Assembly (NCBI GenBank): GCA_015068555.1
Contig: SVKI01000001.1
Coordinates: forward strand, 21,093-85,092
Reading direction: 5' to 3'
Length of the DNA: 64,000 nt
From: Oscillospiraceae bacterium
GTDB lineage: Bacteria > Bacillota > Clostridia > UBA1381 > UBA9506
In this document: positions 1 through 21,441 of the stretch, piece after piece
How the letters are laid out: every line of letters begins with the position of its first letter
Numbering within the stretch: the first letter of the stretch is position 1
The notes under the pieces: generated by a model
What the model saw: the letters and a program-made list of their open reading frames with translations, nothing else
Told to the model about the DNA's origin: nothing
The model's database searches: none
Made by a program: the position numbers and the translations under genes

Positions 1-3000
1 AGCATCATGTAGTTAAGTTTCCACTTATACCCTTGCTTTGTAGATATTTTGAGACGAATATTCCCATCCTTTTCATTGACAAGTGGTAAGACTTTACACT
101 GAAATTTGCCAGCAGGAAGCAGTTCACCTTCTGTTTTTCTGCCGTTTACGACTTCAAGCGTCGTCACGCTTGCAGAATTACTGTCACCGGAGACAACAAA
201 GAGTTCATATTGTCCACGCGGGGCGTCGATAAGAAATTCTACTTCCTCTGTGCCTTCAGCAAAATCCTGACGGAGTATATCCGGACCACCCGGCGCTGCA
301 ATTTGAACAGAATCATTGTTGTTAAAGCCAAAGCCCTGATAGATGGAAAACGGAGGGGTTTCGCTTCCAATTTGCACGAAGGGAAGGGCTATATGCGTAC
401 GTTCCTCGGCAGAGAAGGTGTGGCGCGTCATGCAGGTTTCGTAGGGCTTTTCTGCTTTATTTGTGAAGTCGAATTTATATACCGTATGGTTTTCCATGCG
501 AACATTGCCCACATACCAGTCGCGGATGAAACCGTCAACAGCTTTTTGATAGACTGATTCCGGGTTTTCGCCCAGGAAGATATGACGTTTCAGATAAGAT
601 TCTCTTGATAAAACTTCCGGGTGATAGGTTTGCAATTCATTGTTCTGAACCACGTGTTGTGCTTGGTTGGAAATCACATAAGTGGTGCCGGGTTCTGTTT
701 CAAAGGAGATGAGAGTCCCTTCGTGTTTGATAGGAATAGCGACCTTTTCTGCGTATACCTGATATTCGGCAGTCAGGTACGGAGAGGTGATGCGGATGGT
801 GCCGCCTTTTTGGCTTTCCACCTTGATATAATCAAGTTTACCTTCGGTTAATGAAGCTGAGATAAGGAAAGCACCTTTTGCAAGCAGGCTTTCGAAGTGG
901 AGTGTTGTCCAGGCTTTGTACGTTGTAAAACGGTCATCAAATTCGTTGATGGGGTAGCCATGACGTTGTAAGCGGCCGTATTCCATATCGCCGTCAGGCA
1001 GAGCGGGGAAAACGCGGACAATGCCGTTGTGTGATTGCAGAAGCATTTCGTTGACTGCGGCCAGCATTTCGCCCGTGTATTCCATCATGCAGGGATAGTA
1101 CAGGGGTTGGCGGGGGACTAAGCAGTGGTTTATGAAACGTTCAGTTTCTTCGGCTGTTAAGCCGTTGGTGCGGAGCATGTGGTCGATGCCGCGCTCATAT
1201 AAGAGGCGCAGAGCGGTTTGCCCGCGGCCCAGACGGGCGGCAGCGGCTGCTATCCAGCTGCTTTGGAAGACACCGAGCTCTGTTCTTTCATCTAAGAAAT
1301 CGATGCTGTTTGACCAGTATGCAACCCACTCGGGAGAGCTTTCTAAGTCGAATTCACCAATAGGGAAGAGCGGCATCAACAGGCTTGGATGACGAATCCA
1401 CATATTATCCGGTGCATCGGCAGAATCTTTGACATGTTTGCCGAATGTTCCCTCATTCGAGATGGGATAGGGGGCAAGATGTTCCATCATATGACGGTAT
1501 TCTGCTTCGCGCTTGAGGTCGATTTTTAATATTTCTGCGGATTTAAGGGTAAATTGCAATAAATATTTCACGCAGGCAACTGTGATAACAGTGTCATGCG
1601 CAAAGGGGCCTTGCTCCGGCGAAACATCCGGGAAAATGCTGTAATAGCCCTTTTCTTCATCGAAGTGAAAGACCTGCAAATAGTAGTCGCACAGTTTAAC
1701 AAAGAGGGGAAAGGCCTCGTTTTTCAGGTAGGCTTTGTCGAGACTGTATTCATACAGGAACCAAAGATATTGTGCGCACCAAGCCCACTGGCTATAGTAA
1801 CAACAATGGGGATAATCACCAGCAAGACCGGTTATGGCGTGGACATCATAGGCAAATTTTTCGGCCAGCTTTTCGTAAGAACGCAACCCGTCGGAAAAGA
1901 CCTTTGCCAAATCGAGACGATTGCTGGAAAATACACCCGCAAAGGCCGCCTGGATGTTGACATCCCAATACCACATACTGCCCCAAAGGTTGGGATGTTT
2001 TATATCCCAAAGACCATTTAAGCCGCAGGCGTGGTGTTTCATGACACCGTCCTTACCACTGCTGCAATCTAAGGCATATTGGTTGATATAATACACGTTT
2101 TCTAAGAATGTATCGGGAATAGAAATGGAAGAACGGGAGAAAAACTTGTTCCAATACGATTTGTGTTCTTCATATAAGGTGGAGACAGAAGAAGCAAATT
2201 CTTCGATTTTTGCTACGCCTTCTTCCTGCGTGTTCTGATAGTTCCAATCAGAGAAAACGCCGGTGAGTATATACACCTCGTTTTGCGCAGACTTCAGGTT
2301 GACGGTGGCGCTGTACTCATTTTCGACAAGCGTTCCGGCAGCACCGATCAGTTTTACAACGCCGGAGAAGGTGAAGGCGGATTCTGCATCAAAGTGGCGC
2401 GTGACGGTGTAGGTAAAGGTATTTTCGTTTATTTGTCTATAAGCAACTTGCGGATACTTTAAGTCACGTTGGGGTGAGAGACCGATTTCAATGGAGGTCA
2501 ATAATCCCGGTGTGGTTTGCTTAACATGAGAAATGATGCAATCCTTCCGGGCAACAATGGTGCTCAGCGAAAGTGCGTGTTCGTCATGGGAAAGCGTGAG
2601 CCTTGTTTTGGCATCTTCGATATAGAGAATTAGTTTTTGCTCATCACTTGTCACGGAATCGCTGAAAGCAAAGGAAAGCTCGCCGGTGGGAGGATAACTG
2701 CCTGAGAACCGGTCAATCTTAATCAGGCTTTTATCAAAAGCTTTTTCTCTTTTAAAATCGTAGTTACAAAAAAGCTCCCCTTCCTTAGGGAGGTTTCCAA
2801 TTGCCTGTGCTTTAAATCGGCCGAAACGACCACCGGGATCGGGGACAGGCTGATAGATTTTGAGTAAATTCTCCGGTGTGACATGTTTTGCAATGTTATA
2901 ATATATCTCATAGTGATTCATGGGCATGTGAAGCTGTTCATCTTCGTAATAGAGCATGGCGCCGAAACAACCATTGCCTAAAGGAAGGGCATTATCCCAA

Positions 3001-3038
3001 TGATTATCACAATTTTCAAAGAGAATTGAGTGTTTCAA
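1..3038 (-). CDS. GH95-like (alpha/alpha)6 glycoside hydrolase (putative alpha-L-fucosidase family), cytoplasmic; C-terminus lies beyond the window edge
   Basis: I translated the minus strand by hand from a TTG at 3038 (RBS AAAGGAG 9 nt upstream) and found no stop down to position 1. The N-terminus reads HWDNALPLGNGCFGAML, resembling the GH95 N-domain motif. Further on are WYWDVNIQAAF and LLQSHNGIVRVFPALPD, then a C-terminal beta-sandwich-like tail. No signal peptide. It is missing from the ORF track only because no stop codon falls inside the window. Confidence 0.7.
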   Translation of the reverse strand, partial: MKHSILFENCDNHWDNALPLGNGCFGAMLYYEDEQLHMPMNHYEIYYNIAKHVTPENLLKIYQPVPDPGGRFGRFKAQAIGNLPKEGELFCNYDFKREKAFDKSLIKIDRFSGSYPPTGELSFAFSDSVTSDEQKLILYIEDAKTRLTLSHDEHALSLSTIVARKDCIISHVKQTTPGLLTSIEIGLSPQRDLKYPQVAYRQINENTFTYTVTRHFDAESAFTFSGVVKLIGAAGTLVENEYSATVNLKSAQNEVYILTGVFSDWNYQNTQEEGVAKIEEFASSVSTLYEEHKSYWNKFFSRSSISIPDTFLENVYYINQYALDCSSGKDGVMKHHACGLNGLWDIKHPNLWGSMWYWDVNIQAAFAGVFSSNRLDLAKVFSDGLRSYEKLAEKFAYDVHAITGLAGDYPHCCYYSQWAWCAQYLWFLYEYSLDKAYLKNEAFPLFVKLCDYYLQVFHFDEEKGYYSIFPDVSPEQGPFAHDTVITVACVKYLLQFTLKSAEILKIDLKREAEYRHMMEHLAPYPISNEGTFGKHVKDSADAPDNMWIRHPSLLMPLFPIGEFDLESSPEWVAYWSNSIDFLDERTELGVFQSSWIAAAAARLGRGQTALRLLYERGIDHMLRTNGLTAEETERFINHCLVPRQPLYYPCMMEYTGEMLAAVNEMLLQSHNGIVRVFPALPDGDMEYGRLQRHGYPINEFDDRFTTYKAWTTLHFESLLAKGAFLISASLTEGKLDYIKVESQKGGTIRITSPYLTAEYQVYAEKVAIPIKHEGTLISFETEPGTTYVISNQAQHVVQNNELQTYHPEVLSRESYLKRHIFLGENPESVYQKAVDGFIRDWYVGNVRMENHTVYKFDFTNKAEKPYETCMTRHTFSAEERTHIALPFVQIGSETPPFSIYQGFGFNNNDSVQIAAPGGPDILRQDFAEGTEEVEFLIDAPRGQYELFVVSGDSNSASVTTLEVVNGRKTEGELLPAGKFQCKVLPLVNEKDGNIRLKISTKQGYKWKLNYMM

Positions 3039-3126
3039 AATGCATATCTCCTTTACATGAATTTTTGCTATCAGTATATCATAAACCGCTAAGAAAGGGA
3101 AATGGATTTTGAGGGGAATATGAAAA

Positions 3127-3226
3127 AAAGCATTTTGGTTATAAAACTTGTATACTCCGTACAAAAAAAGACAAAGAAAGCGCATTTTTGTTATATAAAA
3201 ATTATCGAAAAAGCATTTTAGTTATA
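3127..3226. promoter_or_regulatory. Three direct copies of AAAGC(G)CATTTTnGTTATA in the divergent GH95 / AraC-hybrid intergenic region (candidate operator array)
   Basis: Copies are at 3127-3143 (AAAGCATTTTGGTTATA), 3177-3195 (AAAGCGCATTTTTGTTATA) and 3210-3226 (AAAGCATTTTAGTTATA). A fourth related copy, AAAGCATTTTTGTGGTAT, lies at 17062-17079 upstream of the first 520-aa paralog. Confidence 0.4.
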
Positions 3227-3271
3227 TACGAGAGAGGATTTTTCTTGTATGATATAGTTAGAGGTGAAAGT

Positions 3272-4933
3272 ATGCTTATTACAGATAAAGAAAAATTACA
3301 ACAATATACAACGGAGCACAGAGTCTGGCAGGGAATTCCCAGCATAGAAGTGACGAAAAAGGGACGTTTATTTGCCACCTTTTATTCCGGCGGTATCAAA
3401 GAAGATATAGGTAATTTTGTTATACTGGTTAAGTCAGACGATGGTGACACCTTTTCAGAGCCCATTTTGGTTGCTCATAAAGAAGATTACAGATGTTTTG
3501 ACCCCTGCGTTTGGATGGATCCTTTAGGCAGATTATGGCTGACCTGGTCTATGATTCCTGACCACGGTACTTATGCGACAATCTGTGATGACCCTGATGC
3601 TGAAGAACTATCCTTTGGTGAGGTTTTCTTTGTGGGTCATGATGTGATGATGAATAAGCCGACTGTGCTTTCAACAGGCGAATGGTTGTTTCCAATTGCT
3701 GTGTGGAATGACGGTGTGCGTGTTTTGACAAAAGAGTATGATTCGAAAGAGAAAGATAAGAAGTCATTTGTTTATAAAACCGTTGATAATGGCAGAACCT
3801 TTGAAAAATTAGGCGGTGCCGATGTTAAAGAGCGTTCTTACGATGAGCATATGGTTTTGGAACTGGCTGACGGAAGACTGGCTATGTATGTCCGCACCTA
3901 TTATGGTATTGGCGTTTCGTATTCCTTTGATAGGGGTAAAACCTGGACAGACGGAAGAGACAGCGGACTGGGAGGACCTTCTTCACGTTTCTTTATCAGA
4001 CGGCTTCCTTCCGGAAGAATTCTTTTGATTGGTCATGATGACACAAAAGAAAGAAACAATCTGACGGCTTATCTTTCAGAAGACGAGGGCAAAACTTGGC
4101 CTTATAAAATTCTTTTGGATGAACGCATGAAGGTTGCATATCCGGATGCCACAGTGGATGAAGATGGATATATTCATATTACCTATGACCGCGAGCGAGG
4201 TGATTCGCTTAAATCGTTGGATGAGGCATATTCCAAGGCGCGCGAAATACTATATGCCCGCATTACGGAAGATGATATTATAGCGGGTAGACCTCATAGT
4301 GAGAAAAGCATGCTGAAGGGGATTATCTCAAAGCTCGGCAAATATTCAGAGGAGAAGGAGAATCCCTTCCACGAGTTTGAACGGTTTACGGATGCAGAGC
4401 TTGCAGAGCACTTATTGCAAAGTCATCCGGAACACCTTGTTGAAAAGATTTTTGGCTATTATCCCATTAACTGTGTGAATATGCATCAGCTGGAAGCAAC
4501 GCGCTTTGACGAACTGGTTGAAGCTTTGGACAGAGACCGGGGAGACAAACTGAAGATTGTGACAGAGCTTGTCACGATTGTCCGTTCGGTTTCAGAATTT
4601 AAAATTGACAAATTCCCTGTTGTGGAAACGGTGAAGCAGATTATTATGGCCAATAAAGATAAGGATTTATCTGTGACAGAGATTGCGGAAAAAGCCGGCA
4701 TCAGTAAACATTATATGATGCATTTGTTTAAAAAAGTAACAGGCACCACGCTAACGGAATACAAAAACGCGCTGAAAATTGCCTGTGCAAAAAAACTGCT
4801 GATCAGCAGTTCAAAGTCTATGGCGGCCATTTCGCAGGAATGCGGTTTCGGCAGTTCCAGTTATTTTTCTAAGGTGTTTTTGCAAAGTGAAAAAATTTCA
4901 CCTTCTGAATACAGAAGGTTGTTGCAAAAGTGA
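3272..4933 (+). CDS. Hybrid transcriptional regulator: N-terminal Asp-box (BNR/sialidase-like) beta-propeller fused to a C-terminal AraC/XylS HTH domain
   Basis: ATG at 3272 follows the RBS AGAGGTGAAAG; the track start at 3188 is an upstream TTG. Asp-boxes are SDDGDTFS, VDNGRTFE, SFDRGKTWT and SEDEGKTWP. The C-terminus has the AraC double HTH (LSVTEIAEKAGISKHYMMHLFKK ... ISQECGFGSSSYFSKVFLQ). No signal peptide or TM segment. Confidence 0.8.
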   Translation: MLITDKEKLQQYTTEHRVWQGIPSIEVTKKGRLFATFYSGGIKEDIGNFVILVKSDDGDTFSEPILVAHKEDYRCFDPCVWMDPLGRLWLTWSMIPDHGTYATICDDPDAEELSFGEVFFVGHDVMMNKPTVLSTGEWLFPIAVWNDGVRVLTKEYDSKEKDKKSFVYKTVDNGRTFEKLGGADVKERSYDEHMVLELADGRLAMYVRTYYGIGVSYSFDRGKTWTDGRDSGLGGPSSRFFIRRLPSGRILLIGHDDTKERNNLTAYLSEDEGKTWPYKILLDERMKVAYPDATVDEDGYIHITYDRERGDSLKSLDEAYSKAREILYARITEDDIIAGRPHSEKSMLKGIISKLGKYSEEKENPFHEFERFTDAELAEHLLQSHPEHLVEKIFGYYPINCVNMHQLEATRFDELVEALDRDRGDKLKIVTELVTIVRSVSEFKIDKFPVVETVKQIIMANKDKDLSVTEIAEKAGISKHYMMHLFKKVTGTTLTEYKNALKIACAKKLLISSSKSMAAISQECGFGSSSYFSKVFLQSEKISPSEYRRLLQK

Positions 4934-4967: not shown

Positions 4968-7900
4968 ATGAAAAAGCGAATTTTAGGTTTACTGCTAACG
5001 CTACTTATGATTCTTTCGCTGGTTCCGGTTGGGACAGGCGCGGCAGAAGATGCATGGATGAGCTTTTATGTGAGCCCAACAGGTAGTGACAGCGCTTCCG
5101 GTACACAATCAGCGCCGTTTAAAACGCTTGCTCGTGCGCAGGAAGAAGTTAGAAAGCACAACAAAAATATGCAGGGAGACATTGTTGTTAACCTGATGCC
5201 TGGTCGCTATGAAACGATGAAGCATCTGGTGTTCACCGTTGAAGATTCGGCCACAAACGGTTTTGAAATTATCTGGCAGGGCACAGACAAAAACAACCTT
5301 CCCACAGTTTCCGGCGGTAAGGAAGTGATCGGAACATGGACCGAGGGTGAAAACGGCATCTGGCAGGTTAAGGCTGAGAACTTTGACTTTGTGCGTGAAA
5401 TGTTTGTAAACGACAGGGTTGCCACCCGTGCCCGTTCTGCCAAAAAGGTTTGGGGTACCGGTCTTTACACCGAAGCGGCAAAGTGGATCCACCCGCATTT
5501 TGGTGAGCAGAGCACAAACTATTTAGGCTACTGCTTTGACAAAACCAAGATGGGTCTTTACGAGAACCCGGAGGATGTGGAATTGCATGCTATCATGAAG
5601 TTCAGAACGGCGCTCCTTCGAGTGGATGACATTGTGCAGCATCCTGATCATGAAAATCAGGTTGTTGTTATGATTGACAAGCAGATGTTCAACGAATATA
5701 ACGTTGGCATGAGTAGTGGTGTGCAGGTGAACTACAACCACGCCTTTGTTGTGGAAAATGCCTTTGAGCTTTTGGACGAGCCGGGCGAGTTCTATTTTAA
5801 TAAGAAGACAAAGGTGCTTTATTACATTCCCCGTGAGGGTGAAAACTTAAACAATGCTGAGGTTATTATTCCTGTGAATGAACAGCTTGTGTTTGTTTCG
5901 GGTAACAATGAAAAGGATCTGGTAAAGGGTATCACCTTCCAGAATATCCGTTTTGCTCACGCTACTAACTACGAGCTTGAGGATAACTCCATCACCGGCG
6001 GTCAGGCAGAATATCACTACAGTACATATACGCCATATAGGACCGGTCGTGCAGCGATTTTGTTAGATTGGGCTGACAATGTGAACATCGAGTCATGCGT
6101 GCTTTTTGGCCTCACAGGCAAGGGAATTCACATAAGAAACGGCGTGTTTAACAGCCGCTATGACGGCAACGTGTTTGCAGACCTTGGTTCTGACGGCGTT
6201 GACGTGAGTGTTTCAAACCACGATGATGACATTTACACCGTGGATTATGAAGGCCCCTATGATGTGGCGTGGCATGCGCCTTGGGCATCTTCTTACCATT
6301 ACTGGCCGGCTAGTGCCTATAACTATGGCGCACTTAACACCCAGCGCCAAAGACAGGAAGATATGGCTAAGGGCAGCGGTTGGTATTCAAACCCGTTGGG
6401 TAGCGATTCTCCTGAATGGGTGATGCTGGAGCTTGAGAGAGAATATGATTTGGAAAGCTTTGAGTTTTCCTTCCCGAAAACTGCCACAAGCGAGCAGAGA
6501 AGCAACTTTGAAGTGCAGATTTCAAATGACAGAAAGTTTGGCGATTATAAAACCATTGCGACATTTACTGAGCCGGCAGAATTAACAGAAAAAATTGCTG
6601 TTGACGGCACAGAAAGATATCGCTACATCCGACTGATTAAGACGGATAACGGTCCCTTCTGCTTAAACGCGGTTTGGGCATGGTCGAACGAGGGCGCTCC
6701 CAGCGGTTCGATGGCACCGAGAGAGCTTTCAATCTCTAATAACTATTTCACTCGTGTATCTCAGCATAAGCAGGGCTCTTACCCCATTATGCTGAACTAT
6801 GGTAACAACATTGATGTGCTTCATAACCACATTGAGGATGCTCCTTATGCGGGCATCACCGTTGGTTGGGGTTGGTATTCACCCAACTCGAGCTGTTATG
6901 ACAACAACATCAGCAAAAACAAGATTGAAGACGTTATGCAATATATGGATGACGGTGCCGGCATCTACATCTTGGGTCCTCAGCCAGGCACGAAGGTTGA
7001 AGAAAACCTCATCCGCAACACAGTGCATGATGGTATGGCACTATATTTTGACCAAGGTACAACCGGCGTTACAGCAAACGGCAACGTATCCTACGGTACA
7101 AAAACCTGGATGAATATGAACATCAGAAATAACTATGGTGCGGCAACTTGTCTGGATAACGAGGTTATGAATGCCTACACTGGTGATAATGTGAAGTTTA
7201 ACCTGATGGGTGTTGATGCGACTGACCAGCTAACCAAAGATGGTATGGTAACACTTTCTCATGTCGGTTTGGGTAGCCTGACCCTTTACATGGATGTTCC
7301 CACACAGTTTAACATCACCAATCCGCCGGACGAAGTGGCACGCATCATGGCAGAATCCGGCCTTGAAGAAAATTGGGAATGGATTATGGAGCGTGTACCC
7401 GAAGAGGACGTACAGCGCACCATTCTCTACGGTGAAGATTCTTCCGATGCAAGACAGTTGCTTTCTGCAGGACTTACCGCAAATCTGCGTATTGAAGCAG
7501 ATGTTGATATTGCAAAGAGTATGCTGGCAAATGGCAGCTTCGGTAATCTGCCCTGGCAGTACGACCCGGCAACCAAGGTGGAAATGGAATATTGGATTGC
7601 ATCAACAGAGTATGCCGATGACAGAGCAGATGACAGCACGAAGATTCATCTTGAGGAGCAATACAACCTGCAGAGAGCCATTCGTGCAGCAAATGATTCT
7701 GTTTATCATCCTTCTTTTGATGAGATGCTCACCATGTGTGAAGATTTGGCGAAAGACACAGCTAATTATACGGCGACAGATATTGCGGCCTTTAACAAAA
7801 AGGTTGCTGAAATCCGCGCAACCAATCCCGAAACGAAGGGTGAAAAGGGCGTAGCCGCTAACCAATTGCGTGTAGCTTATATGGATTTATATTCTAAAAC

Positions 7901-8690
7901 TAAGAACCCTGAAGTGATGGCAGTTGTTGTGCGTGGCGGCAAGAGCGAAGTTGATGCCGCTAACAAGAAGGTTACGGTAACTCTTCCTTATGACATGGAT
8001 TATTCTGAAATTGGTGCACCTTTTGTGGCTGTAACACCCGGCAGCAAGTTGGCTGTTGATTCTAAAGAGATTAATTTTGCAAAAGGTAAGGGAATTCTTC
8101 CTATATATAATGAAGCACACAGAACATATAGCTTTTGGAACGTGGAATTTGTTCATGGAGACAAAGAAGGAACGACCGGAGCTATTGATATCGCTCCGGA
8201 GAACTGGACAACGGGCAATATGAACGTGCAGAAAACAATTATTGATGGTGCGCTCACCATTGAGCCCTGGTATCAGCCGACCATGAACAAGGTTTTGACG
8301 GCAAATGAGATTTCGTTTGCACTTAATGTGCCCCGTGCGGATACATTAGATGGCATTGGCATGATTTTTGGTGCACAGACGACAGATTTGGTTTATAACG
8401 GATTTGAAAGCAAGAATACGTACTACATGCTGAAGCTGGTTGACCAGAATCTGACACTTTACAAGGTGAAAGATGGCGTAGCAACAGCCTGCATGACAGC
8501 AGAAGATATCTACTTTAACTATGGCGAGTTCAATCCCTTCACCATTACGGTGACAGAAGAGCACGATTTAAACCGTGTGACGGTGAAAATTGAAAATGAT
8601 GTGATTTTAGATACCCTGGTGGATGAACCAATCAGCAAGACTGGATATTTTGGTATTCTGTCGAAGCACATGGCAGTTAAAGTAAAATAA
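4968..8690 (+). CDS. Secreted right-handed parallel beta-helix protein (polysaccharide hydrolase/lyase-like) with an inserted discoidin (F5/8 type C)-like module
   Basis: RBS AAGGGAGG. Signal peptide MKKRILGLLLTLLMILSLVPVGTGAAED. FYVSPTGSDSASGTQSAPFKTL is the N-terminal cap typical of beta-helix enzymes. Repeated NN-I/V-GxxI turns are present (NNISKNKIED...GAGIYILG...NLIRNTV). The central segment WVMLELEREYDLESFEFSF...YRYIRLIKT looks discoidin-like. Confidence 0.65.
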   Translation: MKKRILGLLLTLLMILSLVPVGTGAAEDAWMSFYVSPTGSDSASGTQSAPFKTLARAQEEVRKHNKNMQGDIVVNLMPGRYETMKHLVFTVEDSATNGFEIIWQGTDKNNLPTVSGGKEVIGTWTEGENGIWQVKAENFDFVREMFVNDRVATRARSAKKVWGTGLYTEAAKWIHPHFGEQSTNYLGYCFDKTKMGLYENPEDVELHAIMKFRTALLRVDDIVQHPDHENQVVVMIDKQMFNEYNVGMSSGVQVNYNHAFVVENAFELLDEPGEFYFNKKTKVLYYIPREGENLNNAEVIIPVNEQLVFVSGNNEKDLVKGITFQNIRFAHATNYELEDNSITGGQAEYHYSTYTPYRTGRAAILLDWADNVNIESCVLFGLTGKGIHIRNGVFNSRYDGNVFADLGSDGVDVSVSNHDDDIYTVDYEGPYDVAWHAPWASSYHYWPASAYNYGALNTQRQRQEDMAKGSGWYSNPLGSDSPEWVMLELEREYDLESFEFSFPKTATSEQRSNFEVQISNDRKFGDYKTIATFTEPAELTEKIAVDGTERYRYIRLIKTDNGPFCLNAVWAWSNEGAPSGSMAPRELSISNNYFTRVSQHKQGSYPIMLNYGNNIDVLHNHIEDAPYAGITVGWGWYSPNSSCYDNNISKNKIEDVMQYMDDGAGIYILGPQPGTKVEENLIRNTVHDGMALYFDQGTTGVTANGNVSYGTKTWMNMNIRNNYGAATCLDNEVMNAYTGDNVKFNLMGVDATDQLTKDGMVTLSHVGLGSLTLYMDVPTQFNITNPPDEVARIMAESGLEENWEWIMERVPEEDVQRTILYGEDSSDARQLLSAGLTANLRIEADVDIAKSMLANGSFGNLPWQYDPATKVEMEYWIASTEYADDRADDSTKIHLEEQYNLQRAIRAANDSVYHPSFDEMLTMCEDLAKDTANYTATDIAAFNKKVAEIRATNPETKGEKGVAANQLRVAYMDLYSKTKNPEVMAVVVRGGKSEVDAANKKVTVTLPYDMDYSEIGAPFVAVTPGSKLAVDSKEINFAKGKGILPIYNEAHRTYSFWNVEFVHGDKEGTTGAIDIAPENWTTGNMNVQKTIIDGALTIEPWYQPTMNKVLTANEISFALNVPRADTLDGIGMIFGAQTTDLVYNGFESKNTYYMLKLVDQNLTLYKVKDGVATACMTAEDIYFNYGEFNPFTITVTEEHDLNRVTVKIENDVILDTLVDEPISKTGYFGILSKHMAVKVK

Positions 8691-8718: not shown

Positions 8719-8840
8719 GTAACAAGGGATGTTAGCCAGGGGGAGAAGAAAGAGCATACTTCGATTTTCTCCTCTTGGCGCACCCTTCGTCACAAGCACA
8801 GGAGACAGTATAATAGATTCCTTTGAGAAAGGAGATTTTA

Positions 8841-11800
8841 ATGATGAAAAAGATTTTGTCCTTGGTTCTTAGTGCGTTTATGCTTGTATCCTTACTGCCT
8901 ATGACAGCCATGGCGGCCAGTCCACAGGCAACCTACCATCAGGATGGCCCTGCTTTTTCTGTTGCAGCGTCAAATCTCACGGTAGCAGATGCAACAGTTG
9001 TAACGTTTACCGCAACGGCTTATAATAAAGATGGCACGCAGGTGGGCGACGCTTTGAGCCAAAATGCAACAGTAACCGGAGGTGCTCTTGCGGCTTCCGT
9101 TAACTTTGAGTCTGATGGAGCAGAGGCTTCTTCTGCAATTGCATCGGTTAAGGTGGTTGTGAAAAACGGTGATGAGGAAGTTGTTCCGGAGAAGAGCTTC
9201 ACCGTAACGCCGCAGGCGGTTACAGACAATGTGTATAATAACTTCACCAACGGTTTTTATAAGCCGGTTGTGGGAGATGACGTAACGGTCAGTGCACAAA
9301 AGTGGGCGAAATGGATTGATGGCAGTTATGCAACAGGCGGTGATGATTCTAACTTGGCAGACAATAATCCGACGACATACGGCACTTTGAATCAATCCAG
9401 CGGCAATGTTAGCGGACAAGTGCTTATCTGGCAGAAATATGTTACGCTTTCATCTGCTGTAAAGATTGACCGTGTTGTTGCATGGAGTAATAAAACAGTC
9501 AATGAGTATTATCTTGCGAAGACAATAGATATGACATCCCCGGGATACCATACACATGATGATAAATTCCTGGGAACTTCAACTACGGATTCTGCAATTA
9601 AGTATCTTGGCAACAAAGATAGTGCGGCTGTCTGCACGGACGATGTCATTGCCGGCATGCGTCGCATGGTGTTTAATGCTGATGGTGGAGAATATACCCA
9701 TTTGATTCACCACGCTCCGGCAAGCGGCGGTGGTTCAACACGCCTTGCAGATATTCAGGCTTACCAGAAGGTGAAGGTGAGCAAAGAAGCATTTGCGGTT
9801 GCTCCCGGAGCAACATACAGCCAGGAAGGCTCTGCATTTTCGGTTAAAGCTGTACAACTTACTATAGAAGAGGGTACCGAACTGACGTTTGCGGCAACAG
9901 CTTATAAAGCAGACGGTACAACCGTTGTCGGCACACCGCTGACAAAAACCGCAGCGGTGACAGCAGGCGGTGCTTTTGCAGCTTCTGTAGATTTTGAGGC
10001 TGGCGGTACGGAAGCAGACTTTTCAATCGCATCGGTTAAGGTTGTAGTGAAGAATGGTGACGAGGAAGTGATTCCTGAGAAGAACTTCACCGTAACGCCG
10101 CAGGCGGTTACAGACAATGTGTATAATAACTTCACCAACGGTTTTTATAAGCCGGTTGTGGGAGATGGCGTAACGGTCAGTGCACAAAAGTGGGCGAAAT
10201 GGATTGATGGCAGTTATGCAACAGGCGGTGATGATTCTAACCTGGCAGACAATAATCCGACGACATACGGCACTTTGAATCAATCCAGCGGAAATGTTAG
10301 CGGACAAGTGCTTATCTGGCAGAAATATGTTACGCTTTCATCTGCTGTAAAGATTGACCGTGTTGTTGCATGGAGTAATAAAACAGTCAATGAGTATTAT
10401 CTTGCGAAGACAATAGATATGACATCCCCGGGATACCATACACATGATGATAAATTCCTGGGAACTTCAACTACGGATTCTGCAATTAAGTATCTTGGCA
10501 ACAAAGACAGTGCGGCTGTCTGCACAGACGATGTCATTGCCGGCATGCGTCGCATGGTGTTTAATGCTGATGGTGGAGAATATACCCATTTGATTCACCA
10601 CGCTCCGGCAAGCGGCGGCGGTTCAACACGCCTTGCAGATATTCAGGCTTACCAGAAGGTAGTTGTTGATATTGTGGCTTTGGGTGATGGTTATGTTGAG
10701 CCGGATAATGGTAATGACGATAATGAAGAAGAAGAAGAGCCGGTTGTTCCGGATCCGCCGACTCCGCCGCAGATCACAACAGAAGAAGTAGCCCTGAATA
10801 AAGCGGCTTTTTCTTATAATTCTAAGATAGGAACGAATCCTTCCATGGCAATAGATGGTAAGGACTCGACAGCCTGGGAATCCAAGGGTACAGGAACAGT
10901 TGCCGATAACTTTGTGATCGATTTAGGCGCTGATTATGAAGTGCATGCTGTTAAGATTCTGCCGAAGGCTGCAGATTCAGCACAAAATATAACAGTTTAC
11001 GGGACAAAGAAAAATGCAACAAATGCTACTTCTGCCGAAAATCAGGATAAGACGAAGCTGGGTGAAATCGGTACAGAGGCACTTTCTACCACAGAGATGA
11101 AAGAACTTACCGTAGCCACTCCGGCAGCCTATCGTTACATTGTGATTGAACAGGCAGCAGGTGCATCTAAACCGATGGCTCTTTGCGAAGTTGAGGTTTG
11201 GGCTAAGGAATCGGAGGTTGTTTCAACAGCCGTTCCTGTGAGCCTTGTGAGCAAGGGTGCGACTCCTTATTCCGGTCCTAAAGGCTTACCTGCAACGACT
11301 GCTTTTACAAATGTTCAGACACTGACGGATGATGATCCAACGGTTACGGCATATGGCCAGGGTAATGACACAACGGCAGCAAATGGCTTGTATTTATACA
11401 TTGACTTAGGTCAGCCGGTTAAGACAACCCATGTTGCATATCAGGCAATCCTGCACGAGAACAATCTTCGTGGTGCCGAGGGATTTGTTGTTGTTGGTAC
11501 AAACAATGTGGACGATTTTGAAAATGGAACGGCGACTGTACTGGCAACTGCCGGAACAAGTGGTATCGCCGGCACAGTCGGTGCTGACACCGGCTTGTGG
11601 ATGTTCCCGATAAATAGCACAACGGCATATCAATATTACGGTGTTATGAAGAAAACGCCGGCTACAGGGCTTAAGGCTCTTTCTGCAAATACATTACAGG
11701 TGTACAGTAAGGCTTCCGACATGGCGCAGTTGGTGAACGATGCAGGTGTGAGCGCTTTGGTTTCTAATGTTAAGAAGGAAATCGGGGAAAACAGCGTTAC

Positions 11801-13742
11801 CTATTCTGCCAGCTATTTAACCGGCGCCGGCAACGGTGAAGCCATTGGCTTCTTCAGCCGTTATAATAAGGATGGCCAGCTTGTAGATGCATACACCGTA
11901 AATGGTGGTTACATGATGAGTGGCTATTACAATGAAGTTAACTTTACTGTTCCTGATGTTGTAACTGCGGATAAGGACGTTTGGGAACTGATCGTTATTT
12001 GCGGCGATCGTGTGATTGATTACATCACCGATGTAAAGAAGATGACAAGACCTATGGCCTATGCAGGTACAGAAGGTGAAGGTTTAACCTTTACCCAAAC
12101 GGGCCACACCATTACGGCAAGTGGCACAGTGGATGCAAATGTTTTGGCGATGATGGTTCTTGACAAGGATGCCGGCATTGAAGCTTACACGGTAGAGGAT
12201 ATTCTGAGCTGTCAGTTTGCTTATGCACCTGAAGAGGCAATGGCTCCGTGGAATTATAGCTTCCGCTTTACCATGCCGAACAGAACGGCAGGAGAATATC
12301 CTGTTCACTTCCTTTCGGACAACGGAGCGCTTTCTGATGACAATAAGATTATGAATGTTTATGATGTGTCTCAGATTGTGACAGACTTCCAGAGTGTGAT
12401 GCCGGATACCTTCTTAGCTGCTATCAATGATCGGGATAATGCAGGATTCTTTGGTACAGAGCTTGTTACGGCATTAAATGCTGCCGGTGATGACATTGGT
12501 GTGAACTTTATGCTTGCAAAAACAGGCTTTACTTCAGGTCTTTTTGACAAGGACCTGACCCGGTGGAATGATATTAACACCATCGTTGCTGCAGTAGAGG
12601 CGGCTCTGGTGATTGATGCAACCGTTGCAGAGAGTGGTGTTGCAGAGGCTATTTTAGCACACGGCGCCGTCCTGCCGGAGATTTTTGGAACAGATGCATA
12701 TAGTGCGGAAGAGTTCGAAATCATATTACCGGATGTTATGGATATTGTCGGTTCTAACAGCGCAGAAAAGCTGGCCAATGCATATAAACGCACGATTGCT
12801 CTTTCGCTGCTTTATAATGGCAGCCAGGCTGAAAAGGAACGGGCAATCGAAGAGTACAGAGATGCATTGGGTATTGCAGAAGATACATTAGATACAGAAA
12901 TGACGGTACGCGCTATTGCTGAAAAGCTTTCTAACACGCCTTCTGTTGTTACCGGTACTTATGCATACGGCATGAATCAGATAGTTGACGATATCATTAC
13001 GGATTGGGAAGAGAATCAGGATGATTCCAAAGAACTGGGTACCAATGGTAATAAGCGTCCCGGCACTGTCGGTAATGTGACCGCGTCAATACCTCGTGAT
13101 TTTATCGGTACCACAGATACAGCCTTTATTCCCACGCAGGATAAAGTGGAAGCGGAAAATCAGGAAGCATCAGCTCAATTTAATGACATCCAGCATCATG
13201 TCTGGGCGCAGGATGCAATCGGCAAGCTTGCTGCAAAAGGCATTCTGTCCGGTCAGGGTGACGGAAACTTTAATCCGGACGGATTACTAACCCGTGAACA
13301 GGCTGCTAAAATTCTAGTGCTTGTAATGAATTTGCCGACCAGTGCAAATGATAACGGATATCGCGATTGTGCGTACGGCTCCTGGTATTATCCATACATC
13401 ACAGCGGCCAAGGAGCATGACCTTGTTAAGGGCGTTTCCCGCTCCGATTTTGGTGTGGGTCAGCTTGTGACAAGACAGGATCTGGCGGTTATGATTTATC
13501 GTGCGATGGACGGTTTGGATATCGTGGATGCAGAGGTTTCTGCTAAATTTACAGATGATACGGCGACCAGTGATTACGCAAAAGTGGCCGTGAATAAATT
13601 AGGTGGTATGGGTCTTATCTCTGGTTTTGCAGATGGCAGCTTTGGTGCGAATAAGAATACAACCCGTGCACAGGCTGCGGTTATGTTTGCGAGATTGCTT
13701 GAACGAATAGAGAACATGGCAGAGGAGGTGGCTGCTGAATGA
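8841..13742 (+). CDS. Giant secreted cell-surface protein: duplicated 296-aa module, discoidin-like domains, C-terminal triple SLH anchor
   Basis: ATG at 8841 lies 6 nt after GGAG; the track start at 8823 is a TTG. Signal peptide ends ...LLPMTAMA/AS. An acidic/Pro linker (NEEEEEPVVPDPPTPP) follows the duplicated module. Discoidin-like segments include AIDGKDSTAWES...YRYIVIEQ...LCEVEVWA. Three SLH repeats sit at the C-terminus (WAQDAIGKLAAKGILSGQGDGNFNPDGLLTREQAAKIL; YYPYITAAKEHDLVKG...VTRQDLAVMIYRA; YAKVAVNKLGGMGLISGFADGSFGANKNTTRAQAAVMFARLL). Confidence 0.8.
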   Translation: MMKKILSLVLSAFMLVSLLPMTAMAASPQATYHQDGPAFSVAASNLTVADATVVTFTATAYNKDGTQVGDALSQNATVTGGALAASVNFESDGAEASSAIASVKVVVKNGDEEVVPEKSFTVTPQAVTDNVYNNFTNGFYKPVVGDDVTVSAQKWAKWIDGSYATGGDDSNLADNNPTTYGTLNQSSGNVSGQVLIWQKYVTLSSAVKIDRVVAWSNKTVNEYYLAKTIDMTSPGYHTHDDKFLGTSTTDSAIKYLGNKDSAAVCTDDVIAGMRRMVFNADGGEYTHLIHHAPASGGGSTRLADIQAYQKVKVSKEAFAVAPGATYSQEGSAFSVKAVQLTIEEGTELTFAATAYKADGTTVVGTPLTKTAAVTAGGAFAASVDFEAGGTEADFSIASVKVVVKNGDEEVIPEKNFTVTPQAVTDNVYNNFTNGFYKPVVGDGVTVSAQKWAKWIDGSYATGGDDSNLADNNPTTYGTLNQSSGNVSGQVLIWQKYVTLSSAVKIDRVVAWSNKTVNEYYLAKTIDMTSPGYHTHDDKFLGTSTTDSAIKYLGNKDSAAVCTDDVIAGMRRMVFNADGGEYTHLIHHAPASGGGSTRLADIQAYQKVVVDIVALGDGYVEPDNGNDDNEEEEEPVVPDPPTPPQITTEEVALNKAAFSYNSKIGTNPSMAIDGKDSTAWESKGTGTVADNFVIDLGADYEVHAVKILPKAADSAQNITVYGTKKNATNATSAENQDKTKLGEIGTEALSTTEMKELTVATPAAYRYIVIEQAAGASKPMALCEVEVWAKESEVVSTAVPVSLVSKGATPYSGPKGLPATTAFTNVQTLTDDDPTVTAYGQGNDTTAANGLYLYIDLGQPVKTTHVAYQAILHENNLRGAEGFVVVGTNNVDDFENGTATVLATAGTSGIAGTVGADTGLWMFPINSTTAYQYYGVMKKTPATGLKALSANTLQVYSKASDMAQLVNDAGVSALVSNVKKEIGENSVTYSASYLTGAGNGEAIGFFSRYNKDGQLVDAYTVNGGYMMSGYYNEVNFTVPDVVTADKDVWELIVICGDRVIDYITDVKKMTRPMAYAGTEGEGLTFTQTGHTITASGTVDANVLAMMVLDKDAGIEAYTVEDILSCQFAYAPEEAMAPWNYSFRFTMPNRTAGEYPVHFLSDNGALSDDNKIMNVYDVSQIVTDFQSVMPDTFLAAINDRDNAGFFGTELVTALNAAGDDIGVNFMLAKTGFTSGLFDKDLTRWNDINTIVAAVEAALVIDATVAESGVAEAILAHGAVLPEIFGTDAYSAEEFEIILPDVMDIVGSNSAEKLANAYKRTIALSLLYNGSQAEKERAIEEYRDALGIAEDTLDTEMTVRAIAEKLSNTPSVVTGTYAYGMNQIVDDIITDWEENQDDSKELGTNGNKRPGTVGNVTASIPRDFIGTTDTAFIPTQDKVEAENQEASAQFNDIQHHVWAQDAIGKLAAKGILSGQGDGNFNPDGLLTREQAAKILVLVMNLPTSANDNGYRDCAYGSWYYPYITAAKEHDLVKGVSRSDFGVGQLVTRQDLAVMIYRAMDGLDIVDAEVSAKFTDDTATSDYAKVAVNKLGGMGLISGFADGSFGANKNTTRAQAAVMFARLLERIENMAEEVAAE
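8919..10661 (+). repeat. In-frame tandem duplication, period 888 bp (296 codons), two copies inside the giant surface-protein gene
   Basis: Positions 9733 and 10621 align exactly 888 nt apart (gttcaacacgccttgcag). Over about 9190-9773 versus 10078-10661 the copies are near-identical, with only scattered single-base differences. The first ~250 bp of each unit is clearly diverged at both nucleotide and protein level. Confidence 0.95.
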
Positions 13743-16700: not shown

Positions 16701-17017
16701 GTGATAATCCGAAGGGTGCTGTTTGGCATATTTCAGGTAATAATATTTCTCACTACAGCGGCTATTATCGCTTCCAGATTGGTGAAATCATGGATGTGAG
16801 TGATAATGCGATTACAGTTAAAACTGTTTTCGGTAATGAGGAAATATATCCCAAAAATGCATTTGCAAATGTTGTTGTTTGCGAAAAGAGCGGAACCAAA
16901 TATAAAATAGGTTCTGTTACGAATTTGGGACAGTATGAAGGTGCTAATGTACAGATTATGTTGTACTCATACAACGGTGCACCGAGAGCTGCATGTATTT
17001 ATCCATATTATGAATAA
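13739..17017 (+). CDS. Secreted surface protein: N-terminal discoidin-like domain, three SLH repeats, long uncharacterized C-terminal region
   Basis: Its ATG overlaps the upstream stop (ATGA at 13739-13742). Signal peptide MKKLLALILSIILIVGLCPMQAAVVSAAED. The discoidin-like segment reads NLTDGNPLSIWSG...WVMLDLG...YRYVRVIKT...FNEFEVYG. SLH-like repeats follow (FTRAEAVAAVVDAF; HPYYMDVMTACHLGYITGDNNTTFRPDDYVTTTEFLFITLRAMGY; VTRGQAAVIFYNALL). Confidence 0.7.
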   Translation: MKKLLALILSIILIVGLCPMQAAVVSAAEDENVALGLVPTCKEDREGNIITNLTDGNPLSIWSGPAGIDQNWVMLDLGVPHVISQVILHVRVDVNADYYREAANLELSNTPDFAQKVVYEAFPSIDPETGEPYEITIKDKKAYRYVRVIKTNSVTLTFNEFEVYGSVPTNELKIGDDIVGTSIEGPATLLAHLGLMGMKDPDNTLFVKDAIFTRAEAVAAVVDAFAGNVSFSGGIPFNDVDKAHPYYMDVMTACHLGYITGDNNTTFRPDDYVTTTEFLFITLRAMGYDDVIEKLFGNDPGRVINLTEKLKLLKGVTVESYNAPVTRGQAAVIFYNALLAPEFNMFAAQEGFLTFSDEADMLRRNHGLVLIQGIVEENRITNLEGDAKANKNSAKISGRKFVDPEGKLDNFLGKEVIIATDVDGSGEIVLAWSTQKEQEIVIPASALCSDVADIEAGRIVAYDEDGDEESYVLESPVRVIKNELSYPYFAPEDLLITNGQLRLLDNDRDGVYEVVFLEEYSLHYIESAFYDDNTFTFVDSEGVRKVLDRENLVVAASDGNSIGLRRVASGTVIKLFASNDGSFNRIVLYDTPVIGKLTAYSMTEASVDGVRYGLSLSYQNTILENEPVPGEPVSAFVDEAGDILWIERDTKAINDGWVIAFSQQTAVGSGLSPKLGFRMFTQDAKWVEAYVGDKVVVDGVSTTKDNLTKMIADDSENRFTGALLRYKLNTAGHLAQIDTQVETAAEAKLGASFGKGLLVMEGMYTSGSAGFWNGHTMVTPAKSDTPTFVIPTVNSEFTTDSSYDSLYYVRNLSSMLTSHQQRSDYNLQSYMPDEDGYPACFMKTQNYSASVGESTESMVGINSTNAPFMLVEKAVYSTTPDGEVGFKLTGRVITSSGLGAESSIIANAESSMIESGLLYQEQPDCLNESNLVIESAIGSLTPTQIDRYVNSVTDIGFGDIIRYEAGSSTVRTVERYFDYDEKEPAGAGDNPKGAVWHISGNNISHYSGYYRFQIGEIMDVSDNAITVKTVFGNEEIYPKNAFANVVVCEKSGTKYKIGSVTNLGQYEGANVQIMLYSYNGAPRAACIYPYYE

Positions 17018-17137
17018 CAATAAGGACTGTCTCGTTTGCGGGACAGTCCTTATTGTTAAAAAAAGCATTTTTGTGGTATCATTAGTCGGTGATGTTATGT
17101 ATAATACAGATAAAAACAACGAGATGGAGGGAAGCTT

Positions 17138-18700: not shown

Positions 18701-18712
18701 GAGAATATTATT

Positions 18713-19831: not shown

Positions 19832-19842
19832 GGAGGAAACTC

Positions 19843-21405: not shown

Positions 21406-21441
21406 GATAGGTGTACGATTGTGCACGTTTTGTGAATAATT

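Follow-up and report, generated by a model that had tools for sequence, protein, structure and literature searches.

The window analysed here is a stretch of 64,000 nucleotides of DNA from an Oscillospiraceae bacterium. Near its start lies a complete gene that joins a sialidase-fold propeller to an AraC/XylS DNA-binding domain within a single open reading frame (ORF). The gene and its surroundings comprise the following features, with positions counted from the first letter of the window.

3–3038, minus strand: GH95-like hydrolase gene, divergent from the regulator gene, with Pfam GH95 catalytic and C-terminal domains and no signal peptide; it runs off the start of the window
3124–3228, plus strand: candidate operator of three ~22-nt direct repeats (3124–3145, 3176–3197, and 3207–3228) with the core AGCATTTTNGTTATA
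3246–3253, plus strand: extended -10-like element TGTATGAT of the regulator promoter
3272–4933, plus strand: complete gene of the propeller-AraC fusion regulator (ORF, translation, Pfam domains, full-length homologues)
3272–4336, plus strand: residues 1–355, six-bladed sialidase-fold (BNR_2) propeller (Pfam, AlphaFold2, Foldseek, alignments)
4337–4618, plus strand: residues 356–449, helical linker of about five helices (AlphaFold2 secondary structure)
4619–4930, plus strand: residues 450–553, AraC/XylS DNA-binding domain with two HTH motifs (Pfam, NCBIfam, PDB matches)
4968–8690, plus strand: gene for a secreted 1240-aa beta-helix GH141-like protein with an F5/8-type-C module
8823–17017, plus strand: genes for two large secreted proteins of 1639 and 1092 aa with S-layer-homology (SLH) and F5/8-type-C domains
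17061–17105, plus strand: weaker repeat copy (core 17064–17078, two mismatches) with TGTATAAT at 17098–17105, again 20 nt on
17138–22335, plus strand: cytoplasmic sub-operon encoding a 520-aa protein of unknown type, a 372-aa BNR_2 protein, a second 520-aa paralog, and a xylose-isomerase-like TIM-barrel protein

An earlier note on this DNA had described the regulator gene as divergent from a GH95-type gene and as the head of a glycan locus, and both descriptions hold; the divergent arrangement recurs in the ortholog L089. The GH141-like gene starts 34 nt past the regulator stop codon, and its product shares 46% identity over its full length with a 1240-aa protein encoded in the operon of another ortholog, L009, where a homologue of the 1639-aa SLH protein also comes after the GH141-like gene. 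Within the sub-operon, the two 520-aa proteins have no NCBIfam model. The 372-aa BNR_2 protein (18713–19831) was considered as a paralog of the sensor and rejected, as its similarity is confined to the Asp-boxes (E about 0.001), and it belongs to a different BNR_2 family than the regulator propeller. Nor does the window hold a close relative of the C-terminal propeller of long forms.

The regulator ORF is free of stop codons and encodes 553 aa. Its start is placed at the ATG at 3272 rather than at the TTG upstream at 3188, because AGAGGTGAAAGTATG, comprising the ribosome-binding site and start, is kept in four orthologous loci and homologues begin with MLITDK.... Only two kinds of domain in the protein exceed the Pfam thresholds: BNR_2 (PF13088; residues 31–303, E 4.6e-24, 85.7 bits against a cut-off of 31.4) and the AraC-type HTH, seen both as HTH_18 (PF12833; residues 471–549, E 2.8e-19, profile positions 1–79 of 80) and as HTH_AraC in two stretches. 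An AraC_binding or cupin domain was not found in this search, and the linker (356–449) matches no Pfam family. At least 25 NCBIfam AraC-type models, including AraC, MelR, and RhaS, match residues 450–552, and the AraC-type domains 3oio and XylR 4fe7 are among the PDB sequence matches of the protein. By its C-terminal double-HTH domain of ~100 aa, the protein is a member of the AraC/XylS family, and its N-terminal domain is a six-bladed propeller of the BNR_2, or sialidase, fold.

The same architecture had been read from the letters in the earlier note, and it is upheld by an AlphaFold2 model of good quality (mean pLDDT 92.8, pTM 0.82), in which an all-beta N-terminal domain (strands 20–354) is followed by helices, with seven helices between residues 450 and 552. 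The four Asp-box-like motifs are likewise present (SDDGDTFS at 55–62, VDNGRTFE at 171–178, SFDRGKTW at 218–225, and SEDEGKTW at 269–276), and inspection of the N-terminus revealed neither a hydrophobic signal nor a transmembrane segment, in agreement with the cytoplasmic location originally proposed. In Foldseek, all 50 of the matches listed are sialidase-fold propellers, the majority being characterised GH33 sialidases with TM-scores of at most 0.66 (against the target) and identities of 17–19%. The listed matches also include a designed protein at rank 1 (4j9t) and the uncharacterised 5hx0. Residues 1–355 are presumed to serve as the effector-binding domain, and are possibly catalytic too.

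Propeller-AraC fusions are carried by hundreds of uncultured gut Clostridia. Both PF13088 and PF12833 occur in all of the best 120 clusters, which are 55–100% identical at 99–100% coverage and were drawn from NCBI, JGI, ENA, and Logan assemblies, and a survey of GTDB species representatives yielded 40 fusion loci. The carriers include MAGs of Oscillospiraceae, Ruminococcaceae, and Lachnospiraceae from ruminant and human sources, and the residues of the DNA-binding domain are conserved across the fusion family. Thus the question raised by the note, whether relatives keep the fusion, is answered in the affirmative. Variants do exist; for example, locus L003 encodes shortened paralogs of 508–511 aa that retain the linker and end after the first HTH. 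The propeller itself belongs to a much wider family of 613 representative clusters (E<1e-30; clusters at 50% identity), in which it is partnered with GH51, GDSL/CE2 esterases, a sulfatase, CBM32-type modules, dockerin, and SLH domains. Complete standalone propellers (~365 aa) are up to ~63% identical to regulator propellers, and neither the propeller nor its standalone relatives are represented by an NCBIfam model. In public records, the fusion proteins are named either “exo-alpha-sialidase” or “helix-turn-helix domain-containing protein”, and either name misses half of the protein. In the literature library searched, no description of a sialidase-fold propeller fused to an AraC domain came to light, in line with the earlier note, whose author knew of no characterised AraC regulator with a BNR propeller.

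The residues of the putative active site were compared across 90 family members, including 42 of ~300–440 aa without an HTH (a few of which end at a contig edge) and five large multi-module enzymes. Invariant in regulators and non-regulators alike are G21, E44, N48, R74, D77, E192, R208, R239, R261, R285, Y290, D292, D306, and R309, with R17 and D83 near-invariant, and the regulator retains the complete family-invariant set. When profile-aligned to solved sialidases, E192 corresponds to the catalytic Glu, R208 to Arg2, R261 to Arg3, and Y290 to the nucleophilic Tyr, and D306 aligns with the acidic residue that holds Arg1 in sialidases. In 4BBW, 4FJ6, NanB, and RgNanH, the Tyr and Glu align with Y290 and E192, both of them invariant in the family, so that the Tyr and partner Glu expected of GH33 are in place. 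The N-terminal blades are another matter, as they could not be usefully aligned to any solved sialidase with profiles built from the N-terminal 165 or 236 residues. The invariant E44 and D77 are candidates for the acid/base Asp by position only.

At the motif level, the RIP position of sialidases is read as Gly21 in QGIP, part of QGIPS at residues 20–24 of the regulator, and this glycine is invariant in 90 of 90 family members. The Arg triad of GH33, including the Arg of (F/Y)RIP, thus appears to be incomplete, and the vacant space may be taken by another conserved Arg of the family (R17, R74, R239, R285, or R309). The note had taken QGIPS as the mark of a propeller repurposed from catalysis to binding. 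This does not stand, because Gly21 is shared with standalone propellers and secreted multi-module enzymes and is therefore a family trait rather than decay in the regulator. The note had also regarded a complete sialidase constellation as the sign of an enzyme rather than a sensor, and here the outcome is divided: the canonical set is incomplete, since the RIP Arg is missing, but the set of the family itself is complete.

The intergenic region upstream of the regulator gene suggests how the protein may act. The cores of the three direct repeats are spaced 52 and 31 nt apart, and the extended -10 element TGTATGAT follows the core of the proximal repeat (AAAAAGCAYTTTNGTTATA) at a distance of 20 nt, so that the repeat would occupy the -35 position. 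L089 has a matching triple-repeat layout, with spacings of 58 and 31 nt and an exact copy of the core, and L009 keeps the proximal copy; in both, TGTATAAT aligns with TGTATGAT at an equal distance from the repeat. Elsewhere in the window, the weaker copy at 17061–17105 is located after a terminator-like hairpin and before the gene at 17138. The core pattern was found five times in the window versus 1.02 expected, three of these in the candidate operator, and one of 100 shuffles reached five, which makes for modest pattern statistics. Support for the motif comes from three related loci, namely the window, L089, and L009; the L090 copy, at 76% identity, has no such motif upstream. The exact core does not occur in any of 88 loci, all of ~71% identity or less. 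Its absence from these loci and presence in L089 suggest that the motif is lineage-specific, as expected for AraC sites.

Gene neighbourhoods in relatives offer a clue to the ligand. A pyruvate aldolase of the KDPG/KHG type (PF01081) lies directly downstream of the regulator in L001, L009, L011, L023, and L091/L092, while in L028, L031, L032, and L034 the next gene downstream encodes a DGOK kinase (for KDG or KDGal). ABC importers also adjoin the regulator in close relatives, and a sister clade of standalone propellers is located in KDPG-aldolase-propeller-PfkB operons. The regulator is the first gene of its operon, 19–34 nt from the next. Neighbourhoods are heterogeneous, however, with an aldolase or kinase within 10 kb in only 11 of the 40 fusion loci, and some loci, such as L006, have no carbohydrate-active enzymes (CAZymes) at all. 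Pfam annotation of the neighbours in L060 and L012 yielded no further substrate clue. In 10 of the 11 loci with an aldolase or kinase, the regulator is the sole family member within 10 kb, and a separate family member lies near the regulator in six fusion loci, directly downstream in five of them. Taken together, these neighbourhoods point to 2-keto-3-deoxy acids as the ligand class, and the fucose, rhamnose, and galactose suggested in the earlier note fit them less well. The window contains no counterparts of the KDPG aldolase, kinase, substrate-binding protein, and permease genes found in the orthologous operons, so the ligand assignment for this regulator is transferred from orthologs that are 57–71% identical to it.

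On balance, and with modest confidence, the protein is best explained as a cytoplasmic one-component activator of the AraC/XylS family that is gated by an acidic sugar of the 2-keto-3-deoxy type through its sialidase-fold propeller. As part of the same explanation, the sensor propeller would have been taken, essentially unchanged, from a widespread and uncharacterised family of GH33-related modules of glycan degradation. The secreted enzymes of the locus (GH141-like and SLH-anchored) would release fragments of a complex, probably plant-wall, glycan, which would then be imported into the cell. The ligand may be a carboxylate sugar of the 2-keto-3-deoxy (ulosonic) or 4,5-unsaturated-uronate type, either free or at the end of an oligosaccharide. 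Its binding in the Arg-rich centre of the propeller would alter how the linker and AraC domain are held. The regulator, probably a dimer, would occupy the direct repeats and switch on both its own operon (the regulator, GH141-like, and SLH genes) and the GH95 gene that diverges from it, and probably also the promoter ahead of 17138.

A second explanation, which seems possible but doubtful, is that the protein is a trigger enzyme, i.e., that the propeller has remained active, as a hydrolase of an ulosonic-acid ketoside or a hydratase of an unsaturated uronate, and that substrate or product in the active site controls the activity of the AraC domain. The operon of regulator, aldolase, and ABC genes might then constitute a “nan-like” module, comparable to the set of sialidase, pyruvate aldolase, and transporter but dedicated to a 2-keto-3-deoxy acid other than sialic acid, with Kdo and Dha as examples. 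Several observations are in its favour. The family-invariant residues are all retained, among them the Tyr290/Glu192 pair and two triad Arg, and complete standalone members share up to ~63% identity with regulator propellers. In the 10 loci where it is the only family member near the aldolase or kinase, the regulator takes the place that the standalone propeller has in the sister operons. As the first gene, closely followed by the next, it could also be made in quantity once induced. On the other hand, enzyme-derived sensors such as MocR/GabR often retain active-site residues merely for binding the same ligand, and a hydrolase that consumes its own inducer makes an awkward sensor. The separate family members in six fusion loci suggest that enzyme work at those loci does not fall to the regulator alone, and since the contigs are fragmentary, a standalone paralog may lie elsewhere in the genome where none is seen nearby.

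A possible parallel for catalysis comes from the degradation of RG-II by B. thetaiotaomicron. The Kdo-hydrolase module of BT1013 is sialidase-like, and a structure of BT1020 is deposited in the PDB. According to a review, the N-terminus of BT1020 is a GH143 Dha-hydrolase, the C-terminus of BT1013 has a Kdo hydrolase activity without a CAZy family, and other linkages of RG-II need GH95 and GH141 enzymes (PMC13501991). The BT1013 entry counts in favour of the trigger-enzyme reading. These ulosonic-acid hydrolases remove 2-keto-3-deoxy acids from a plant glycan, and the window regulator adjoins GH95 and GH141-like genes. No chain named BT_1020 was present among the PDB matches of the family profile (E up to 10) or the 50 Foldseek matches listed, a weak test for GH143 that leaves room for a distant relationship.

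Far less probable is a sialic-acid sensor, with a true sialidase in degenerate form as its propeller and sialic-acid or mucin foraging under its control. GH33 sialidases do provide the closest solved structures and sequence matches, and NCBI labels some members of the family “exo-alpha-sialidase”, but the likeness is distant, at TM-scores of about 0.6 and the low identities given above, and the RIP Arg is Gly family-wide. Genes of the nan type (NanA-type lyase, NanK, and NanE) are absent from the recurring or annotated neighbour families of 83 loci, where KDPG/KHG aldolase, PfkB, and DGOK kinases and plant-glycan CAZymes (GH95, GH141-like, GH51, GH78, and GH28-like) recur instead. Finally, the notion of an artefact or decaying gene, in which an assembly error or frameshift joins two genes or an enzyme bears a vestigial HTH tail, might draw on the close standalone propellers and the truncated L003 copies, but it is effectively refuted by conservation data, as the fusion occurs in >100 independent clusters and 40 GTDB species, and the HTH_18 match, well above threshold, spans nearly the whole profile with conserved DNA-binding residues.

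The regulator shares features with several known systems and differs from each. With classical AraC/XylS regulators (AraC, RhaS/RhaR, MelR, and XylS), it has in common the C-terminal double-HTH domain, a one-component, sugar-linked logic, candidate direct-repeat sites that abut the -35, and apparent self-regulation of its gene. Whereas the classical sensor is a cupin or jelly-roll (AraC_binding), the sensor here is a 355-aa six-bladed propeller with a helical linker. E. coli XylR (PDB 4FE7) also couples an AraC DNA-binding domain to a non-cupin sugar-binding domain, and is the second-best PDB sequence match (residues 419–549, including part of the linker; E about 5e-10). Its sensor, however, has a LacI/PBP-type fold that is unrelated to the propeller and has no catalytic ancestry in its present form.

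Beta-propellers are also found in the hybrid two-component systems (HTCS) of Bacteroides. HTCS proteins sense glycan fragments with beta-propeller (Reg_prop) or PBP domains, have an AraC-type HTH as output, and control polysaccharide-utilisation loci. The likeness extends to the DNA-binding domain, as that of an HTCS (12aw) is among the PDB matches of the regulator. In contrast, HTCS are membrane-spanning proteins with periplasmic sensing that signal through histidine-kinase and receiver domains, none of which is present in the cytoplasmic window regulator, and its six-bladed propeller is of the enzyme type, unlike that of HTCS. The protein is thus not an HTCS. With the GH33 exo-sialidases (e.g., 1EUS of M. 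viridifaciens, 4BBW of B. thetaiotaomicron, and NanH of C. perfringens), it shares the six-bladed fold, the Asp-boxes, and the aligned E192, R208, R261, Y290, and D306. It differs from them in the replacement of the RIP Arg by Gly, in an N-terminal half that lacks detectable sequence similarity, and in having keto-deoxy-hexonate rather than nan neighbours.

A comparable principle is that of the enzyme-derived or enzyme-fused regulators (trigger enzymes) PutA, BirA, Ada, and MocR/GabR, in which a catalytic fold reports metabolite occupancy to a fused DNA-binding domain. The regulator similarly combines a catalytic fold, with its active-site residues retained, and a DNA-binding domain. Among these trigger enzymes, Ada is the only one with an AraC-type DNA-binding domain, and it senses DNA methylation damage; to our knowledge, none of them uses a propeller of the glycoside-hydrolase type.

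AraC/XylS proteins are among the largest families of bacterial transcription factors, with few sensor folds characterised, and the present fusion adds a glycoside-hydrolase-type propeller to these folds. Glycan sensing in gut Clostridia is poorly understood in comparison with the HTCS and SusR systems of Bacteroides. The finding also flags the large and uncharacterised CAZyme-like family to which the propeller belongs, with a gene neighbourhood that points to the catabolism of 2-keto-3-deoxy acids. A regulator that retains the whole active-site signature of its enzyme relatives provides a clean test case of an enzyme becoming a sensor, or staying both. If the trigger-enzyme reading is true, a single protein may both process an acidic sugar and report on it.

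The reading frame at 3272–4933 (+) runs through 553 codons without interruption. Upstream of its ATG at 3272 stands AGAGGTGAAAGT; four orthologous loci carry an identical block of ribosome-binding site plus start, and all homologues start with an MLITDK-like sequence. On paper, an alternative TTG start at 3188 would lengthen the ORF. The N-terminus carries no hydrophobic segment. Pfam places BNR_2 at residues 31–303 (E 4.6e-24) and HTH_18 at residues 471–549 (E 2.8e-19), plus HTH_AraC in two stretches, and the NCBIfam AraC, MelR, RhaS, and SoxS models all hit residues 450–552. An AlphaFold2 model built with 103 homologues is confident (pLDDT 92.8, pTM 0.82) and consists of beta strands to residue 354, ~5 linker helices, and the seven helices of the AraC DNA-binding domain. 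In a Foldseek comparison of this model with the PDB, all 50 matches listed are sialidase-fold propellers, mostly characterized GH33 sialidases (TM-score ≤0.66 on target, 17–19% identity); the 50 also include the first match, 4j9t, a designed protein, and 5hx0, which is uncharacterized. The earlier note had read four Asp-box motifs and a propeller fused to an AraC domain from the sequence; the motifs are present in the translation, and the single ORF, domain models, predicted structure, and fold matches all bear out the architecture. Its N-terminal domain makes the protein a member of the BNR_2 sialidase-fold superfamily, and its DNA-binding domain places it in the AraC/XylS family.

The propeller-AraC fusion is genuine. 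Both PF13088 and PF12833 occur in each of the 120 best clusters from a collection of 5.8 billion proteins, at 55–100% identity and 99–100% query coverage, with members from NCBI, JGI, ENA, and Logan assemblies. The exact protein is on record from a Ruminococcaceae MAG. A GTDB scan using one genome per species returned >521 relatives, and the 80 loci kept from it, together with loci fetched earlier, contain 40 distinct fusion loci. Their hosts are mainly Clostridia, Oscillospiraceae, Lachnospiraceae, and Eubacteriales MAGs, with goat, deer, sheep, buffalo, and human gut as sources. Automated annotation already recognizes both halves of the fusion, one member being named “AraC-like DNA-binding protein/predicted neuraminidase” by JGI.

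Length varies among these proteins, as 17 of the 120 nearest clusters exceed 600 aa, most at ~917 aa. In three long forms examined, a second, unrelated BNR_2 propeller follows the AraC domain, which places the DNA-binding domain between two propellers. One long form (P0031; 10001–12754 of homologous locus L006) has no CAZyme genes nearby. Shorter forms also exist. Locus L003 carries tandem paralogs of 508–511 aa (13777–15312 and 15322–16848), also present in L013, L004, and L005, that keep the propeller, linker, and first HTH and end before the second; they share 48% identity with the window protein over residues 1–502. Such copies could be anti-activators or could have reverted to enzymes.

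The regulator lies in the following glycan locus:

3..3038, divergent from the regulator: GH95-like gene, cytoplasmic product
3272–4933 (+): regulator
34 nt downstream of the regulator: secreted 1240-aa GH141-like beta-helix protein
downstream, after the GH141-like gene: two very large SLH-anchored proteins (1639 and 1092 aa)
beyond a terminator-like hairpin: four genes with cytoplasmic products, encoding a 520-aa protein of unknown type, a 372-aa BNR_2 protein, a second such 520-aa protein, and a xylose-isomerase-like TIM barrel

The divergent GH95-like hydrolase described in the earlier note is thus in place, and the same arrangement is kept in L089 (77% identity). The two 520-aa proteins (17138–18700 and 19843–21405) are paralogs that both start M-I-x-I-G-N-R-R-E-V and have no match in Pfam or NCBIfam; the BNR_2 protein that they flank (18713–19831) belongs to a family different from that of the regulator’s sensor. 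Prophage head-morphogenesis genes (large terminase, SPP1-type portal) occupy 23196–30122, a short distance beyond the final gene of the locus, and mobile-element genes adjoin the regulator in several homologous loci (L002, L006). Housekeeping genes fill the rest of the window; in its right half, a single 670-aa ORF at 47986–49998 (−) combines IspH/LytB with four S1 RNA-binding domains.

The 233-nt region between the GH95 gene and the regulator contains three direct repeats of ~22 nt, GAAAAAGCATTTTNGTTATATA, at 3124, 3176, and 3207, followed by a degenerate fourth. Across the 64-kb window the 15-nt repeat core occurs five times against 1.02 expected, and three of the five lie in this region. 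Since the proximal core ends 20 nt upstream of an extended -10-like element, TGTATGAT (3246–3253), the proximal repeat falls where a -35 element of the regulator promoter would be expected, an arrangement known from class II AraC-type promoters. All three copies recur in L089 in the same layout; their spacings are 58 and 31 nt there, compared with 52 and 31 nt for the window, and in both L089 and L009 the proximal copy stands at the same distance from TGTATAAT as in the window. The repeat is absent from L090 (76% identity, different neighbours). A fourth core match in the window, with two mismatches, lies at 17064–17078, after the hairpin and in the gap upstream of gene 17138, exactly 20 nt upstream of another TGTATAAT. 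Taken from three related loci, the repeats are a reasonable candidate phylogenetic footprint for autoregulation plus a second regulated promoter.

In L009 (71% identity), the regulator shares its operon with a PF01081 aldolase, two ABC permeases, an SBP, a 1240-aa GH141-like gene whose product is 46% identical to its window orthologue over the full length, and an SLH-protein homologue. Synteny in L089 and L009 supports a functional link. All-against-all BLAST clustering of neighbour genes from all loci, with annotation of recurrent clusters, recovered KDPG/KHG aldolase (11 loci), xylose-isomerase-like TIM barrels and SDR (7 each), PfkB kinase (6), GFO/IDH/MocA oxidoreductases and DUF4432 (5 each), 2-keto-3-deoxy-galactonokinase (DGOK; 5, all fusion loci), and ABC transporter components (several loci). 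The gene directly 3′ of the regulator is the aldolase in L001, L009, L011, L023, and L091/L092, DGOK in L028, L031, L032, and L034, and a second propeller-family member in L012, L022, L027, L036, and L050. The window’s closest relatives share a module of regulator, pyruvate aldolase, and ABC importer, with neither kinase nor other propeller. By analogy, this module may do for another 2-keto-3-deoxy acid what the sialidase/NanA/transporter set does in nan clusters. Standalone propellers, which have no HTH, sit within compact KDPG aldolase-propeller-PfkB kinase operons in L060 (9242–13214), L061, L079, and L077, followed by a DUF4432 gene in L060 and L061; this points to a short catabolic pathway fed with a 2-keto-3-deoxy-hexonate by the propeller. 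Another unusual AraC sensor architecture occurs in the same genomes: a 506-aa protein with AraC HTH and B12-binding domains (L092, 4746–6266) adjoins a regulator ortholog, upstream of a URO-D/RACo-type methyltransferase-activation cluster.

Residues 1–372, run in a full HMMER scan against 1.84 billion representatives, match 613 clusters at E<1e-30. Architectures include standalone proteins of 350–400 aa, tandem propellers, and large secreted multi-module proteins. For example, L022 (2574–7685) joins the propeller to a GH51 arabinofuranosidase in 1704 aa, and other partners are GDSL/CE2 esterases with CBM32-type modules, a BD-FAE esterase, sulfatase, dockerin, and SLH domains. Multi-module fusions were noted in P0263, P0258, P0207, P0246, P0226, and P0130. 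With these varied enzyme-fused architectures, the module behaves like an unclassified catalytic CAZyme module and is not a one-off sensor domain. Standalone members come from, among other taxa, Hungatella hathewayi, Ruthenibacterium lactatiformans, Paenibacillus phytorum, Ruania, Planctomycetota, and Lentisphaerae, and complete ones reach ~63% identity to regulator propellers. Neighbour-joining groups the regulators into one broad clade, within which a few standalone proteins are scattered; its sister is a set of standalone proteins encoded in KDPG-aldolase-propeller-PfkB operons. NCBIfam has no model for the family, no solved structure from it was detected among PDB sequence matches to its profile (the best being GH33 sialidases at E 1e-7 or weaker), and a literature search found no description of the family or the fusion.

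Profile-to-PDB alignments, which agree across several sialidases and cover blades 4–6, equate five residues with sialidase positions:

E192 (motif fDEhmilE): catalytic Glu
R208 (16 residues C-terminal to E192): Arg2 of the triad
R261 (ahead of the last Asp-box): Arg3 of the triad
Y290 (motif vsYPD): nucleophile Tyr
D306 (motif itYDre): Glu holding the first Arg

For the N-terminal half, no alignment to any solved sialidase was obtained. Read at motif level, Gly21 takes the position of the RIP arginine. The earlier note saw this glycine, within QGIPS, and suggested that the propeller may have been repurposed from catalysis to binding; the glycine stands, but the inference fails, as Gly21 is invariant in 90/90 family members compared, including HTH-less proteins and multi-module enzymes. 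Regulators and non-regulators share an invariant polar set (G21, E44, N48, R74, D77, E192, R208, R239, R261, R285, Y290, D292, D306, R309), so the regulator propeller appears free of decay relative to enzyme-like relatives; R17, D83, and H193 are near-invariant. The family as a whole is related to GH33, and its centre is modified and rich in Arg.

On balance, the regulator is probably a ligand-gated one-component AraC activator. The secreted enzymes of the locus would cut a complex glycan, whose fragments would be imported; a carboxylate-bearing sugar would bind the Arg-rich propeller centre, and the linker and AraC domain would be released or re-oriented. The regulator would then bind the direct repeats and activate the operon that it heads together with the divergent GH95 gene and, probably, the 17138 sub-operon. 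This ligand class is proposed because the retained sialidase-type residues recognize a carboxylate beside the anomeric centre, because aldolases and kinases are neighbours, and because the locus holds RG-II-type enzymes (GH95, GH141-like). RG-II contains Kdo and Dha, both of which B. thetaiotaomicron removes with dedicated hydrolases (PMC13501991). Since the window has none of the orthologs’ aldolase, kinase, or transporter genes, the assignment for its own copy is indirect. A 4,5-unsaturated uronate may be another candidate, as it resembles the sialidase inhibitor DANA.

The main alternative, a possible but rather unlikely one, is that the regulator is still an enzyme and acts as a trigger enzyme, a reading that extends to a nan-like Kdo/Dha pathway. 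The residue set is intact, the regulator is the first gene of its operon, and it is the sole family member in 10/11 aldolase- or kinase-containing fusion loci; however, separate paralogs adjoin it in six loci, and enzyme-derived sensors generally keep binding residues. A sensor of sialic acid itself is improbable, and an artefact behind the fusion is hardly conceivable.

With respect to known systems, identities as a GH33 sialidase, whose full catalytic definition the regulator falls short of, and as an HTCS were rejected, and GH143 membership was not detected. The nearest analogues in function are XylR, whose AraC domain carries a sugar sensor of non-cupin type; Bacteroides HTCS, which likewise sense glycans by a propeller with AraC output but are periplasmic and signal through a phosphorelay; and the enzyme-derived regulators of MocR/GabR or PutA type.
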